DNA of 64,000 nt from Escherichia coli (GTDB lineage Bacteria > Pseudomonadota > Gammaproteobacteria > Enterobacterales > Enterobacteriaceae): the NCBI RefSeq assembly GCF_050320075.1, contig NZ_CP190018.1. One strand, 5' to 3'. This document shows, piece after piece, positions 1,819 to 61,494 of this stretch; position 1 is the stretch's first letter; every line of letters starts with the position of its first letter. Below the pieces are notes generated by a model. The model was given only the letters and a program-made list of their open reading frames with translations, ran no database searches and had not been told where the DNA came from. Both the position numbers and the translations under genes were made by a program.

Positions 1819-3023
1819 TAATCCACCAATAATTCCAGCGCGCGGTCAACGGCATTCACCAGCGCATCCACATCACTCTTTGTATTATATGGCGCAAAAG
1901 AGGCGCGCAGTGTGCCGGTTACGCCTAATTCTGCCAGTAGCGGCTGAGCGCAATGCTGCCCGGCCCGCAGGGCAATACCGTACTCCGCCAGCAGCGTCAC
2001 CATATCGCTGTGATGAACGCCAGCAAAATCAAAGGCCAGCAGGCTGGAATCCTGGCAGCGAAATGAGCGGAAGCCAGGACGTTTTGCCAGCGCATCTTCC
2101 GCTAGCGTTGCTAAGCTACGGCTCCAGCTTTCGGCCTGGTTGATATCGTAATCTGCCAGCCATTCCAGCGCCGCGCTTAATCCTATGACACCAGCGACAT
2201 TTGGCGTTCCGGCTTCCAGTTTCCACGGCGCAGATTGAGTCGTGAAGCCGTCAAAACTCACTTCGTGAATCATTTTGCCGCCACCCAGCCAGGGTGACAT
2301 CGCTTCCAGCAGTTCTGATTTGCCATACAGCACGCCGATACCCGTCGGGCCATACAGTTTGTGACCAGAGAAAGCATAGAAATCAATATCCAGTTGCTGA
2401 ACATCCGCAGGGAAATGCACCGCCCCCTGAGCACCATCAACCATCACCACCATCCCGGCTGAATGAGCAAAGGTAATCGCTCGCGCCAGATCCGGGCAAC
2501 CGCCAGTCACGTTCGACATCTGACCCAACGCCAGAATCCGACTACGGGGAGTAATCAGTTCTGGCAACAAATCGACATCCGGCAGTCGCTGCGCATTAAG
2601 CGGCAATTTCACCACTTTGGCTCCCGTTTGTTGGGCGACCATCAGCCAGGGGACGAGGTTGGCGTGGTGTTCTGCCACGCTGACAATAATCTCATCGCCC
2701 GGTTGCAGACGTGGACGCGCATAGCATTGTGCCACCATGTTGATGGATTCAGTGGTGCCGCGCGTCCAGACGATAGTTTTGTCATCTGGTGCATTCAGTA
2801 ATTGCGCCACTTTCTCTCGTGCAGCTTCATAACGCGCGGTCAGGCGTTGGGCTTCGGCAAACTGGCTGCGATGGACGTTTCCGGCGCTCAGGCTGTAAAA
2901 CTGTCGGGTGGCTTCAACCACGGCTTCAGGTTTAAGCGCGGTCGCGGCGCTGTCGAGATAGACGCCCGCATCCTGAAGTGCGGGAAACTGGGCGCGAAAC
3001 TGCGCGGGATTAAAAACGTTCAT
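1818..3023 (-). CDS. csdA: cysteine desulfurase CsdA (PLP-dependent)
   Basis: ORF 1818..3059; start placed at ATG 3021-3023 (MNVFNPAQF...) giving 401 aa; upstream extension likely an alternative-start artefact. Confidence 0.9.
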
Positions 3024-3211
3024 GGTACTCCTCGGCTTGATGAACCGATCGTGACGCAAAATTCACTTTGATACAAGGAGAGTGCTAACCATCAGAATTA
3101 TCTGGATATCCTGGCGAAGCCGCGTAAGTAACATATGCTGAATAGTGTTAGGCGTTAATTTTAGCCTGTTAATCAATACTATTAAGATTTATTAATCGCT
3201 TTAAGGAGAAG

Positions 3212-3442
3212 ATGATGAAAAAGACTGCCGCAATTATTTCTGCCTGTATGCTGACTTTTGCCCTGAGCGCCTGTTCCGGTTCGAACTATGTGATGCACAC
3301 CAATGACGGACGTACCATCGTCTCTGACGGCAAACCACAGACTGATAACGATACCGGTATGATTTCGTATAAAGACGCTAATGGCAACAAACAGCAGATC
3401 AACCGTACTGACGTGAAAGAGATGGTCGAACTGGATCAGTAA
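3212..3442 (+). CDS. ygdI: small lipoprotein (DUF903 family) with lipobox LSAC
   Basis: 76-aa ORF with signal peptide and lipobox cysteine (FALSACSGS); position between csdA and gcvB. Confidence 0.75.
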
Positions 3443-3458
3443 TTCGCGATCGCAAGGT

Positions 3459-3664
3459 AAAAAAAAGCACCGCAATTAGGCGGTGCTACATTAATCACTA
3501 TGGACAGACAGGGTAAATGTACAGGAAGTGAAAAAAGGTAGCTTTGCTACCATGGTCTGAATCGCAGACCAATTGCAAACACAACAACACAACATCACAA
3601 CCGTAAGCCAAAAGTTCACCAGAACACGCATTCCGATAAAACTTTTCGTTCCGGCTCAGGAAGT
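3459..3664 (-). ncRNA. gcvB: GcvB small regulatory RNA (Hfq-dependent, represses amino-acid and peptide transporters)
   Basis: Reverse complement begins ACTTCCTGAGCCGGAACGAAAAG and ends in hairpin GCACCGCCTAATTGCGGTGC plus T8; GU-rich stretch GTTGTGATGTTGTGTTGTTGTGTTTGC present; divergent from gcvA. Confidence 0.9.
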
Positions 3665-3792
3665 GCCGCCACTATAGGTATTTGCTGGTAGAAGCTCAAC
3701 GGACAATTTATAATGGCTCAGATTAAAAAAACTAATAGGTTACACAGTGTGATCTAATTGTTAAATTCATTTAACATCAAAGTTTAAAAGCC
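3665..3792. promoter_or_regulatory. divergent gcvB / gcvA promoter region
   Basis: 128-bp AT-rich interval between the gcvB 5' end and the gcvA start; location only, sites not mapped. Confidence 0.5.
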
Positions 3793-4710
3793 ATGTCTAA
3801 ACGATTACCACCGCTAAATGCCTTACGAGTTTTTGATGCCGCAGCACGCCATTTAAGTTTCACTCGCGCAGCAGAAGAGCTTTTTGTGACCCAGGCCGCA
3901 GTAAGTCATCAAATCAAGTCTCTTGAGGATTTTCTGGGGCTAAAACTGTTCCGCCGCCGTAATCGTTCACTCCTGCTGACCGAGGAAGGGCAAAGCTATT
4001 TCCTCGATATCAAAGAGATATTTTCGCAATTAACCGAAGCGACGCGTAAACTCCAGGCCCGTAGCGCCAAGGGGGCGTTGACGGTCAGTTTACTCCCCAG
4101 TTTCGCCATTCATTGGTTGGTTCCGCGACTTTCCAGCTTTAATTCAGCTTATCCGGGAATTGACGTTCGAATCCAGGCGGTTGATCGTCAGGAAGATAAG
4201 CTGGCGGATGATGTTGATGTGGCGATATTTTATGGTCGGGGCAACTGGCCGGGGCTACGGGTGGAAAAACTGTACGCCGAATATTTATTGCCGGTGTGTT
4301 CGCCGCTACTGCTGACTGGCGAAAAACCCTTGAAGACCCCGGAAGATCTGGCTAAACATACGTTATTACATGATGCGTCGCGCCGTGACTGGCAGACATA
4401 TACCCGACAGTTGGGGTTAAATCATATCAACGTTCAGCAAGGGCCAATTTTTAGCCATAGCGCCATGGTGCTGCAAGCGGCTATCCACGGGCAGGGAGTG
4501 GCGCTGGCAAATAACGTGATGGCGCAATCTGAAATTGAGGCTGGACGTCTTGTTTGCCCGTTTAATGATGTACTGGTCAGTAAAAACGCTTTTTATCTGG
4601 TTTGTCATGACAGCCAGGCAGAACTGGGTAAAATAGCCGCCTTTCGCCAATGGATCCTGGCGAAAGCCGCTGCTGAACAAGAAAAATTCCGCTTTCGTTA
4701 TGAACAATAA
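3793..4710 (+). CDS. gcvA: LysR-family transcriptional regulator of the glycine cleavage system
   Basis: 305-aa ORF with N-terminal LysR HTH (LNALRVFDAAARHLSFTRAAEELFVTQAAVSHQIKSLE); recognised as GcvA. Confidence 0.92.
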   Translation: MSKRLPPLNALRVFDAAARHLSFTRAAEELFVTQAAVSHQIKSLEDFLGLKLFRRRNRSLLLTEEGQSYFLDIKEIFSQLTEATRKLQARSAKGALTVSLLPSFAIHWLVPRLSSFNSAYPGIDVRIQAVDRQEDKLADDVDVAIFYGRGNWPGLRVEKLYAEYLLPVCSPLLLTGEKPLKTPEDLAKHTLLHDASRRDWQTYTRQLGLNHINVQQGPIFSHSAMVLQAAIHGQGVALANNVMAQSEIEAGRLVCPFNDVLVSKNAFYLVCHDSQAELGKIAAFRQWILAKAAAEQEKFRFRYEQ

Positions 4711-14549: not shown

Positions 14550-16783
<2,234 letters not shown>

Positions 16784-16840
16784 AGGAAATACATCGCGTT
16801 AAAACGGAGGAAGCGCCGCCCGAAAGCGGCGCGAAAGGAC

Positions 16841-18130
16841 TTAGTTGAACAGAGAGTAGAAGATTGCGGAGATTGCAATCAGACCCATCACGACAACGAA
16901 TACGTTGCTGATGTGACCGCTGTACTTACGCATTGCCGGTACTTTCTGAATTGCGTACATCGGCATCAGGAACAGGATCATCGCGATGATTGGGCCGCCC
17001 AGGGTTTCAATCATACCCAGGATGCTCGGGTTCAGGGTGGCAACAATCCAGGTCGTTACCAGCATGAACAGCGCAGTGATACGGTTCAGCTTGTTGATTT
17101 CGATAGACTTACCTTTACCACGCAGAGATTTAATCACCATACCGTTGAAGCCTTCACGTGCGCCCAGGTAGTGGCCGAGGAAGGATTTGGTGATAGCGAT
17201 AATCGCGATAATCGGAGCCATCCACGCGATAACCGGTGCGTTAAAGTGGTTAGCCAGGTAAGACAGAATCGAGATGTTCTGCTCTTTAGCCGCAGCCAGG
17301 TCTGCCGGAGTCAGGCTCAGTACGCAGCTGAAGACGAAGAACATTACGGTCAGCACCATCATGATGTGTGCGAATGCCAGGATCTTCGAACATTTCTGTT
17401 CTGCCATATCGCCGTACTCTTCACGCTTCGCAACGGCGAAAGAAGAGATGATCGGAGAGTGGTTGAACGAGAACACCATTACCGGAATTGCCAGCCACAG
17501 GGTCATCCACAGACCGTTTCCGGTTGCCGATGCAGTGTCCAGAGACAGCGTTTCCAGTGCTGCGCCGTTCCACTGCGGGATCAGGTACAGAGCCAGCAGC
17601 ATCAGTACGCCAACAAACGGGAATACCAGAATACTCATCGCTTTAACGATCATCTGCTCACCGAAGCGAACGATGGTCATCATACCCACGATCAGGATCA
17701 GCGACAGAATCGCACGCGGCGGTGGTGTCATACCCAGCTGGTGAGACATGAAGCTTTCAACTGTATTGGTGATTGCCACGCTATAAACCAGCAGGATCGG
17801 GTAGATAGCGAAGAAGTAGAGCAGGGTAATCAGTTTACCTGCGCCAATACCAAAGTGTTCTTCTACAACCTCGGTGATGTCTTCGCCTGGGTTTTTACCA
17901 GACAGTACGAAGCGAGTCAGGCCGCGGTGAGCAAAAAATGTCATCGGGAACGCAAGGATAGCCATGATGATCAGCGGGATCATACCGCCAACACCGGCGT
18001 TGATTGGCAGGAACAGCACGCCCGCGCCGATTGCCGTGCCGTAAAGGCCCAGCATCCACATGGTGTCTGTCTTGCGCCAGGCACTACGAGAGTCTTTCGA
18101 CGCAATCGTGCTGGTTTGAGTCGTTTCCAT
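16841..18130 (-). CDS. sdaC: serine:H+ symporter
   Basis: 429-aa polytopic membrane ORF recognised as SdaC; upstream of sdaB on the same strand. Confidence 0.92.
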
Positions 18131-18685
18131 CTATTTCTCCTGGAGGAATGCAAATAATTCAGCTTTTAGCCAGTTCAGCCCGGGAAGGTGCCTGACCGTA
18201 AAAATGAAATCTGTCTATCGGCGATGGCTTAATCATTTACCGCCGTAATAATTTGAGGGCGGAAAGATACACACAAGTTATGTATCTATCAGTGATCTTG
18301 ATCCCAAATACAATAATCTACTTGGAAGATAGATTATCCCAACGCTTTACTCTGTAAATCAAAAGTAAAAGAGAATTTAAGGGCAATATTTGCCCATTAA
18401 ACGACATCTGACTTCTTCCGGGGCGCGCAATATATGTAGGTTGAACTGAAAAAATCAATACTTTTAGTTAATCATGGCGATAATTTCTTTTTCGTAGCGA
18501 TAAAATGTGGTTTATGAAAATAGGGAAACGTTTGCGTTACGACATAAATTGTATGACATATTAACTGTAATGATATTTATCGCGTGAGGGTGGTAAGAAA
18601 CATTCATATAACAAATGAAATAAATTGATGGGTATGTGACCAAAAACGAGAAAACCCGGCAACAAACGTCACCGGGGGAGGGAGA
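18131..18685 (-). promoter_or_regulatory. long AT-rich sdaCB upstream / leader region
   Basis: 555-bp non-coding AT-rich interval upstream of sdaC with no ORF of 60 aa or more. Confidence 0.4.
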
Positions 18686-20050
18686 TTACGTGCAGATTTC
18701 GTAGCAAGGGATGTAGGCTGAGCCTGGCAACTTCATACGATGCTGGGCAACAAAACCCTGTAGCAGGTCATCCATACGACGCATAATCTCTTTATCGCCG
18801 TTGATTTTATAAGGACCAAACTCTTCAATGGCGCGAATACCGACTTCTTTTACGTTACCCGCCACAATACCGGAGAACGCACGGCGCAGGTCGGCAGCCA
18901 GCACTTCAACGGGTTGATCCGGGTAAAGCTTCAGATTAGCCATATTCTCGTGAGAGGGCTCAAACGGCATTTGCAAATCTGGCGCAATGCGCATTGACCA
19001 GTTAAAGCTGTAGGCATCGCCTGTGTCGCGGCGATTTTCTTTCACCAGCGGCATCGATTTTTTCATCTGACGAGCGACTTCAGCGGCGTCATCAATGATG
19101 ATGCGGTAATGGCGGCGCGCGTTTTCACCCAACGTATGCACGACAAACTCGTCCAGTACGCGGAAGTAGTCGGCGCTCTCTTTCGGGCCGGTGAGGATCA
19201 ATGGTAAAACCTGATCTTTGTTGGCCGGGTTCATTAAAATTCCCAGCAAATACAGCAACTCTTCTGCCGTACCCACACCGCCAGGGAAGATAATGATACC
19301 GTGAGCGATACGGACAAACGCTTCCAGACGTTTTTCGATATCCGGCATGATGATCAATTCGTTGACCAGCGGGTTAGGCGGTTCAGCGGCGATAATCGAC
19401 GGCTCTGTCATACCAATAAAACGACTGTCTTTGTAACGCTGCTGTGCGTGTCCGACCGCAGCACCTTTCATTGGCGCTTCCATCGCTCCCGGACCACAGC
19501 CGGTGCAGATATTCAGCTCACGCAGGCCCAGCTGATTCCCGACGCGACGGGCATACAAATATTCGTTTTCGTTAATTGAGTGCCCGCCCCAGCAGACCAC
19601 CATATTTGGCGCTTCACCGACATGCAGCGCACGAGCGTTACGCAAGATGGAAAAGACCAGGTTAGTGATGTGGACGGAGTTGTCGAGATTCAGGTTGGGA
19701 AAACGAACGGTGTTATGGATTTGCCCGTAAACGAAGAGAATGTCACGCAGAACCGCGAACAAGTTGGCCTGCAAAGCGCGAATAATTCGCCCATCGACAA
19801 AAGCCTCTTCCGGGGGATTAATCAGTTCCAGCTTTACGCCGCGTTCACGGCGCAGGACGTTAATATCGAAATTTTCAAAACGAGACAGCAATTCTTTGCT
19901 GTTATCGGTCAAGCTACCGGAGTTCAGTACGGCAAGTGAACAGTTGCGAAACAGTTGATAGAGGTCGCTGCTGGCGGTGCGTTTAAGCATATCCACTTCC
20001 AGCTGCGACAACATATCCATGGAGCCAAGCGGGCTAATATGTGTAATCAA
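18686..20050 (-). CDS. ppnN: pyrimidine/purine nucleotide 5'-monophosphate nucleosidase (LOG family)
   Basis: 454-aa ORF recognised as PpnN (YgdH); LOG-type PGGxGTxEE motif ([10 protein letters not shown]). Confidence 0.88.
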
Positions 20051-21833: not shown

Positions 21834-22200
21834 GTCGACAGGGAGTCAGACAACGAAGTGAACATCAGGATGATGACACTTCTGAAGGACACACCAGGAT
21901 GGTGTTTCAGGGAAAGGCTTCTGGATGAAGCGAAGAGGATGACGCAGGACGCGTTAAAGGACACCTCCAGGATGGAGAATGAGAACCGGTCAGGATGATT
22001 CGGTGGGTCAGGAAGGCCAGGGACACTTCAGGATGAAGTATCACATCGGGGTGGTGTGAGCAGGAAGCAATAGTTCAGGATGAACGATTGGCCGCAAGGC
22101 CAGAGGAAAAGTTGTCAAGGATGAGCAGGGAGCAACAAAAGTAGCTGGAATGCTGCGAAACGAACCGGGAGCACTGTGAATACAGTGCTCCCTTTTTTTA
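21834..22200 (+). ncRNA. csrB: CsrB sRNA (CsrA-sequestering)
   Basis: About 365 nt with reiterated CAGGATG/AGGATG/AGGA motifs (at least 8 exact AGGATG plus many GGA variants); ends in intrinsic terminator GGGAGCACTGTGAATACAGTGCTCCC plus T7 (22163-22199); 5' end approximate. Confidence 0.9.
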
Positions 22201-22244
22201 TTCCTGCTATCCTTCGCGGCAGTTTTTCTTATTGAGGTTGCTTT

Positions 22245-61128: not shown

Positions 61129-61341
61129 ATTTTGCGAGCAGCATTCCTGATTTTAAACGTGAACGCCGCTGGAAGAATTATCAGGTATAGAATGGCGTTG
61201 GGTGCTTGAGGCTGTCTGGCGTTAAGCATTCGCGAGGTTCCAGATGGACAAAAGCCCCAGGCGATATTTCTATCAACCTGAGGCCAGCGTTCGAACCTAA
61301 GCAATTCGAATGTTAGTCTCTTCTTTGCAGGGAGGCAAGAC

Positions 61342-61494
61342 ATGCTGACAAAATATGCCCTTGTGGCAATCATCGTACTGTGTTGTACAGTACTGGGATT
61401 CACGCTGATGGTAGGCGACTCGTTGTGTGAGTTGAGTATCAGAGAACGTGGTATGGAGTTTAAGGCAGTTCTCGCTTACGAATCGAAGAAGTAG
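61342..61494 (+). CDS. Hok-family type I toxin (50 aa, HokE/HokX-like)
   Basis: ATG 61342 preceded by GGGAGG; product [50 protein letters not shown] has one TM helix and the conserved Hok C-terminal region; below the ORF-track size cutoff. Confidence 0.8.

Follow-up and report, generated by a model that had tools for sequence, protein, structure and literature searches.

The ppnN-sdaC gap of Escherichia coli and the control of the sdaCB operon

The ppnN-sdaC gap and its conservation

The window analysed here, a 64,000-nt stretch of the E. coli contig NZ_CP190018.1, carries the genes queF, ppnN, sdaC and sdaB in this order on its minus strand. Between ppnN and sdaC lies a gap of 555 bp (18131-18685). 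sdaC and sdaB form the sdaCB operon of serine uptake and deamination. Gene names were taken from the RefSeq annotation of K-12, in which the counterpart of the gap is 556 bp long. The features of the locus are collected in Table 1.

An earlier, sequence-only reading had described the gap as an AT-rich, unusually long stretch without a plausible ORF, located wholly upstream of sdaC on its strand, and had proposed that it holds a complex regulatory leader or an unannotated small RNA. The description was largely accurate. The coordinates are exact, and the gap lies entirely 5′ of sdaC, on the strand shared by ppnN, sdaC and sdaB. Its G+C content is 37.7%; the window as a whole has 50.7%, and the crude inter-ORF gaps taken together have 45%. 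The longest ORFs within it encode 46, 43, 34 and 34 AA, none of them is conserved, and searches of Pfam and NCBIfam returned no match. The length is unusual only in part: the median gap in the window is 68 bp, yet 8 of 50 gaps reach at least 500 bp, in a census of crude ORF gaps that gives rough context and is distorted by a spurious 613-AA ORF antisense to sdaC. This plus-strand ORF (16316-18157) spans the whole of sdaC and is an artefact of a stop-poor antisense frame. Several other long, seemingly empty gaps of the window are explained by the CsrB, GcvB and sok-type antitoxin RNAs, which gave Rfam matches at the gathering score outside the ppnN-sdaC gap.

Table 1. Features of the ppnN-sdaC locus (positions refer to the window; distances with a sign refer to the sdaC transcription start)
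Feature	Position	Strand	Remarks
ppnN	18686-20050	-	ORF end at 18686, stop codon counted
ppnN intrinsic terminator	18676-18646	-	hairpin CCCGGTGACGTTTGTTGCCGGG (18676-18655), then T-tract TTTTCTCGTTTTT; RNA 3′ end ~18650
YieP site 1, ATTTGTTATATGAAT	18616-18602	-	~−352; identical to "Site 1" of PMC8282354
YieP site 2, ATATGTCATACAATT	18561-18547	-	~−297; identical to "Site 2" of PMC8282354
PurR operator, ACGCAAACGTTTCCCT	18537-18522	-	centre −272.5; two mismatches to the palindrome ACGNAAACGTTTGCNT
Distal sigma70-like promoter, TTGATT-18 bp-TATATT	18458-18429	-	9/12 match to the sigma70 consensus; G+C-rich discriminator
uORF, 29 codons, MSFNGQILPLNSLLLLIYRVKRWDNLSSK	18407-18318	-	7 of 29 codons Leu; GGAAGAAG stretch 4 nt before ATG
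Lrp region (approximate)	18365-18340	-	~18350, near −97; EcoCyc site; around conserved ACAG 18355-18352
CRP site, TGGGATCAAGATCACT	18306-18291	-	centre 18298.5 = −41.5; near-invariant
−10 hexamer TATCTT	18269-18264	-	main promoter; 32 bp downstream of CRP centre
Discriminator TCCGCC	18263-18258	-	directly after TATCTT
Transcription start of sdaC and sdaCB(-ygdG)	18257	-	K-12 2928102, aligned to the window
Shine-Dalgarno region, TTCCTCCAGGAGAAATA	18146-18132	-	GGAG at 18140-18137
sdaC	16841-18130	-	ATG at 18130-18128
CsrB, GcvB and sok-type matches	21843-22202 (+), 3459-3664 (-), 61200-61357 (+)		Rfam, gathering score

The interval is single-copy and occurs in 5425 of 5426 complete E. coli genomes. 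In K-12 and in the 20 E. coli genomes that were sampled, RefSeq has no feature within the matching interval. For comparison across genera we used 80 Enterobacteriaceae loci fetched with SdaC as the query. ppnN and sdaC are neighbours in 76 of the 80 species, separated by 436-648 bp (median 504 bp), and since both the synteny and the gap length are kept, the long gap is an old, conserved trait.

Identity at four-fold degenerate sites of sdaC (0.57) served as a proxy for neutral divergence. Identity along the gap is very uneven and, beyond the CRP site, the −10 hexamer, the discriminator, the Shine-Dalgarno region and the PurR palindrome, it mostly stays at or below the neutral value; over most of 18521-18325 it amounts to 0.40-0.52. 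The ~60 bp adjoining the ppnN terminator are highly variable within Escherichia and largely missing from other genera. At the same time, a ~335-bp block (~18545 to 18210, minus strand) is nearly free of indels over 76 loci despite identity at or below neutral. Such a scarcity of indels at neutral-level divergence suggests a constraint on spacing or phasing: as the block keeps its length while its sequence diverges, distances within it would be what matters.

Some smaller observations were made along the alignment. Conserved (T)nCAG positions recur in a punctate manner, ~25-50 bp apart, in 18210-18545 and might represent an Lrp array. At positions aligned with 18380-18405, a block, TCGTTAATGGTAGCCTTCGCGCC, is conserved among most genera other than Escherichia (loci L005-L081); in about 20 loci it opens a 13-codon ORF, MSLMVAFAPVNSL, but Salmonella has no ATG there. 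Part of this block is replaced in Escherichia by a perfect palindrome, GGGCAAATATTGCCC (18394-18380). In the clinical isolate E. coli 23AR0151 (L083, NZ_CP195448.1), an IS903B element (locus positions 2838-3894) has taken the place of the downstream 40% of the gap, CRP promoter included, and of the 5′ end of sdaC; the gene is annotated there as a pseudogene that lacks its N-terminus.

The mapped sdaC promoter and the leader

The CRP 16-mer has two mismatches to the consensus TGTGA-N6-TCACA, and as a motif alone it is not statistically unusual (32 matches in the window vs. 25.8 expected). Across 73 non-Escherichia loci the CRP 22-mer shows an identity of 0.88 vs. 0.57 for neutral sites, and its core, TGnGATCnnGATCACT, is invariant across the loci. 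A CRP ChIP-seq peak of ETEC was assigned by its authors to exactly this site, AGTGATCTTGATCTCA (PMC4287617). The −10 hexamer and the discriminator are conserved across genera with identities of 0.97 and 0.91, respectively. TATCTT is present in 68 of 76 loci and is replaced by TACATT in 5 and by TATCGT in 3, and the distance from the CRP site to the hexamer is identical in all 76.

A transcription start at 18257 was predicted beforehand from the spacing of the CRP site and the −10 hexamer, and the capped start at K-12 2928102 then matched it. The SMRT-Cappable-seq operon table lists this position (forward) as the TSS of b2796 and of b2796/b2797/b2798 (Yan et al. 2018, PMC6131387). The K-12 base at 2928102 is a C; TATCTT lies 7 nt before it and the centre of the CRP site 41.5 bp away. 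Three characteristics of a class II promoter were found here, namely a consensus-like CRP site with a ChIP peak, its centring at −41.5 and a −10 element spanning −12 to −7. Dependence of sdaC on CRP has been reported (Hollands 2007, as cited in PMC10882989). From this geometry and the reported CRP dependence we infer that the 18257 start belongs to a class II, cAMP-CRP-activated sigma70 promoter. The CRP dependence also fits the occurrence of cya suppressors at another promoter further upstream, described below. A class I arrangement, with CRP at −61.5 and AATTAT or TATTAC as the −10 element, was considered and dropped, as the near-invariant TATCTT and the capped start favour class II.

As the capped start maps to 18257, only 127 of the 555 bp are transcribed as the sdaC 5′ UTR (18257-18131, minus strand), and the remaining 428 bp lie outside the main sdaC transcript. 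The leader proposed in the sequence-only reading thus shrinks to a short one, and the rest of the gap is mostly promoter-upstream DNA. Over 76 loci the leader is 105-132 nt long and weakly conserved (identity 0.46-0.56), except for one motif and the Shine-Dalgarno region. The motif, GAATTTCA..TTAC, is near-invariant and lies at +47 to +60 of the leader (~18211-18198, minus strand); no consensus structure explains it, and it could be a contact site for a protein or an sRNA.

RNAalifold detected no conserved structure in 75 leaders (−0.8 kcal/mol, 3 pairs, no covariation), and no stable fold was seen for the E. coli 130-nt leader relative to its shuffles (z = 0.08). Two candidate hairpins with some compensatory changes, CGGCG-N17-CGCCG (18245-18219) and GUCAGG..CCUGAC, were rejected, as they gave no RNAalifold consensus and their stems shift register from genus to genus. 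Neither a riboswitch nor an attenuator is indicated for the leader, where no conserved structure, no Term-seq 3′ end and no leader peptide were found.

Identity in the Shine-Dalgarno region reaches 0.82, and CCTCCAGGAG is near-invariant. The sRNA ArcZ pairs here, at −13 to −2, and represses sdaC (PMC11331407, PMC7213987). Duplex prediction recovers the published site: the ArcZ 5′ seed UUUCCCUGG is able to form base pairs with CCAGGAGAAA (−13 to −4). The predicted duplex (−18.5 kcal/mol) was equalled by 326 of 1000 shuffles and is not distinguishable from them; sdaC is known as an ArcZ target from the published experiments.

Sites and transcripts upstream of the mapped start

Three further regulators have reported sites in the upstream part of the gap. 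The two YieP sites are documented by an IPOD-HR peak, ChIP-exo, pull-down with mass spectrometry, gel shift and lacZ assays (PMC8282354). In the same study Site 1 was mutated in an sdaCp-lacZ reporter, and scrambling of both sites altered the reporter output. Deletion of yieP lowered sdaCB mRNA in that work (PMC8282354), whereas another study saw no effect. YieP site 1 falls within the ~60-bp stretch next to the ppnN terminator, where the gap fraction in other genera is 0.7-0.86. For Lrp, the EcoCyc site lies ~200 bp downstream of the YieP peak (PMC8282354), and ChIP enrichment was reported at sdaC and ygdH (PMC2689187).

The PurR palindrome was spotted first by conservation and a pattern search, with an identity of 0.64 across genera. 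The same 16-mer is the sdaC-sdaB motif of a PurR ChIP-chip study, with a log ratio of 2.08 in the presence of adenine (Cho et al. 2011, PMC3159470), where it belongs to the highest enrichment class with adenine. A PurR box with at most four mismatches was found in 49 of 77 loci vs. 1 of 77 shuffles. In the 49 box-bearing species the distance between the PurR box and the CRP centre is always 230.5-233.5 bp, or ~22 helical turns. The fixed distance in the aligned sequences suggests that the two sites may be part of a phased nucleoprotein architecture.

The distal sigma70-like promoter has a predicted start at ~18422 (~K-12 2927937). Two cya-suppressor insertions, +A (K-12 2927924) and +ATT (2927928), raise sdaC expression (PMC10882989, PMC8546631), and when mapped to the window they fall in or beside the distal −10 hexamer TATATT. 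Both papers name this element "the sdaC promoter" (PMC10882989, PMC8546631), and according to Frendorf et al. 2024 the annotated sdaC start is a computational prediction, with no promoter verified. The −10 box hit by the suppressors (18429-18435) lies ~165 bp upstream of the capped start at 18257, with the CRP site in between. No capped start was found near 2927937 in one SMRT-Cappable-seq data set, from which weak or condition-specific starts could escape. Within Escherichia, no other part of the gap varies less than this segment; outside the genus, the identity of the promoter is 0.37-0.52. An equally good match occurs at the aligned position in only 4 of 66 loci. The distal promoter is probably lineage-specific and weak or conditional in the wild type. 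On our reading, the suppressor insertions strengthen this separate promoter and bypass the CRP-dependent one when cAMP is absent. As the capped start lies 165 bp downstream of the "sdaC promoter", the cAMP-independent suppressors need to be reread: a separate promoter was strengthened and the CRP-dependent one was not remodelled. A third candidate promoter with the hexamer TACAAT (18553-18548), for which the PurR box would span +3 to +18, was rejected; it has no −35 element, is unconserved and has no reported start.

An extended form of this reading, which we hold possible but doubtful, gives sdaCB of Escherichia two working promoters. The family-wide class II CRP promoter (18257) would serve under carbon limitation, and the genus-specific distal one (~18422) would account for the high, CRP-independent expression in rich glucose medium. 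If this is true, the distal leader would be 292 nt long and read through the Lrp and CRP sites, and the YieP and PurR sites would lie −108 to −187 from the distal start, i.e., within reach of it. Furthermore, the "PsdaC*" insertions described in 2021-2024 would boost the second promoter and not the main one, and a phased nucleoprotein complex would lie behind the constant distance of 231.5 bp between the PurR and CRP sites.

A reading that we consider improbable goes further and takes the gap to be mainly a ~290-nt regulatory leader, transcribed from the distal promoter and controlling sdaC by attenuation or at the level of translation through the 29-codon peptide and hairpins. The distal element has a 9/12 sigma70 match with a G+C-rich discriminator, and −10 insertions there raise sdaC expression, but the capped start is 2928102, with none near 2927937, and a CRP site at ~+123, where it would then fall, would be unable to activate. 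Frendorf et al. 2024 treat the element as the sdaC promoter, yet by their own account the annotated start is a prediction. Its low variability within Escherichia is set against identities outside the genus of 0.37-0.52 for the promoter and 0.45 for the uORF, vs. 0.57 for neutral sites. Although a hypothetical 295-nt RNA folds better than its shuffles (z = −2.43), this signal may come partly from palindromic DNA sites such as that of CRP, and no premature Term-seq 3′ end was found in the leader. The uORF itself, with its Leu codons and the upstream, Shine-Dalgarno-like GGAAGAAG, was rejected as a functional leucine-rich leader peptide: it is full-length only in Escherichia and lies upstream of the mapped start. 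It has no protein family match, and in one E. coli strain (L004) it is cut to two codons, "MS*".

Still less probable is that the upstream 300 bp are mostly neutral AT-rich spacer, perhaps bound non-specifically by nucleoid proteins, and that the CRP promoter alone matters. The low identity of most of 18521-18325 (0.40-0.52 vs. 0.57) and the ppnN-proximal part, which varies strongly within Escherichia and is mostly missing elsewhere, would agree with it. A spacer does not, however, account for a PurR box that 49 of 77 species keep at a constant distance from CRP, for the near absence of indels between ~18545 and 18210 across genera, for the ChIP and occupancy data on PurR, YieP and Lrp, or for the shift in reporter output upon scrambling of both YieP sites.

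Transcripts at the ppnN end of the gap were followed in published data. The Term-seq "primary" 3′ end of ygdH/ppnN is K-12 2927709/10 (PMC7815308). SMRT-Cappable-seq lists a ppnN-sdaC read-through operon from the ppnN promoter (TSS 2926271; PMC6131387), and position 2927710 has a ratio of 2.2 in a Term-seq table that apparently compares cells with and without bicyclomycin, i.e., Rho inhibition (PMC7815308). The read-through operon and this ratio indicate that some transcription crosses the ppnN terminator, and Rho may terminate such transcripts within the gap. Another "primary", strong Term-seq 3′ end lies further downstream at K-12 2929551, 25 nt upstream of sdaB (~16808 of the window). A GC-rich hairpin and T-tract, CGCGCCGCTTTCGGGCGGCGCTTCCTCCGTTTT, precede it in the sdaC-sdaB spacer (16784-16840, minus strand), and this site looks like an internal terminator or attenuator of the operon.

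The search for hidden genes was negative throughout. Rfam gave no credible match in 17900-18900 at E values up to 10 or, within the gap, in a scan of the whole window at the gathering score. A terminator scan of the gap returned only the terminator of ppnN, and a sequence scan of its plus strand returned no promoter-like site. Term-seq has no 3′ end in K-12 2927711-2928228, i.e., in the gap beyond the ppnN terminator, and SMRT-Cappable-seq has 2928102 as the only capped 5′ end in the 2927900-2928199 part. That the gap conceals an unannotated trans-acting sRNA or small protein gene has next to no probability, as nothing but its length speaks for it (many E. coli sRNAs, with CsrB and GcvB in this window, lie in long intergenic regions) and these results, the lack of a conserved structure, the small ORFs without conservation or family and the blank RefSeq annotation in 20 sampled E. 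coli genomes and K-12 all speak against it. The sRNA of the sequence-only reading, with no Rfam match, terminator of its own, plus-strand promoter, 3′ end, conserved structure or additional capped end in 2927900-2928199, is accordingly not supported, nor is a separate RNA or protein gene inside the gap.

Control of the sdaCB operon and comparison with known systems

Taken together, the gap is very probably the region from which the sdaCB operon is controlled, at both the transcriptional and the post-transcriptional level, and the ppnN terminator precedes it. Transcripts of ppnN end at the hairpin and T-tract near 18650, and those of sdaC begin at 18257. TATCTT is the −10, and the strong CRP site at −41.5 stands in for a −35 element; as a class II promoter it would turn serine catabolism on once the preferred carbon source is exhausted. 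The ~300 bp of AT-rich DNA further 5′ carry the published Lrp (~−97), PurR (−272.5) and YieP (−297, −352) sites, which presumably adjust the promoter to amino-acid and purine supply. The distal promoter would gain strength by insertions at its −10 in the absence of cAMP. At the Shine-Dalgarno region, pairing of ArcZ represses translation, which is the main known function of the leader. A published result counts against this explanation: from minimal glucose to rich defined glucose medium, sdaC expression is reported to rise ~20-fold (PMC8282354), which a purely CRP-driven promoter does not explain. The conflicting effects of yieP deletion, the chance-level number of CRP motif matches in the window and an ArcZ duplex energy no better than that of shuffles also weigh against it.

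The idea of a complex regulatory region holds well: experiments support sites for no fewer than five regulators, namely YieP, PurR, Lrp, CRP and the sRNA ArcZ, in the gap or at its edge. The sequence-only reading had itself named a finding that would count against it, a single promoter immediately upstream of sdaC with no other transcripts and no conservation. A single promoter and no other transcripts were indeed what we found, but conservation is clearly present, with a core promoter that is near-invariant across the family.

What is added here is mainly integration, i.e., the class II geometry matched to the capped start, the family-wide constancy of the PurR-CRP distance, and the assignment of the "PsdaC*" mutations to a separate promoter that lies 165 bp upstream of the capped start. 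The locus also illustrates that a gap left blank in RefSeq can be full of published, unannotated regulatory sites. Beyond a tidier annotation the importance of this is small.

ArcZ-repressed mRNAs include sdaC, tpx and STM3216 (Papenfort 2009, as summarised in PMC11331407). The sdaC gene of the window is a known target itself; CCAGGAGAAA is present and the surrounding CCTCCAGGAG is conserved.

Class II CRP-dependent promoters are exemplified by galP1 and the synthetic CC(−41.5). The sdaC promoter resembles them in having CRP at −41.5 in place of a −35 element, a −10 at the standard distance and reported dependence on cAMP-CRP. It differs from galP1 and CC(−41.5) in that it sits below ~300 bp of additional regulator sites. 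Among the multi-regulator promoters of amino-acid catabolism in E. coli, tdcABC and dadAX combine CRP and Lrp with other regulators. As in these, the sdaCB region belongs to an amino-acid catabolic operon, and several hundred bp of AT-rich upstream DNA combine the inputs of CRP (carbon), Lrp (amino acids) and pathway-linked regulators. In contrast to tdcABC and dadAX, the sdaC set consists of CRP, Lrp, PurR and YieP together with ArcZ at the Shine-Dalgarno region, and the distance of its PurR and YieP sites from the start (−272 to −352) is unusually large. Overall, the ppnN-sdaC gap is an ordinary, documented multi-input promoter region with a short leader, almost all parts of which have already been published.
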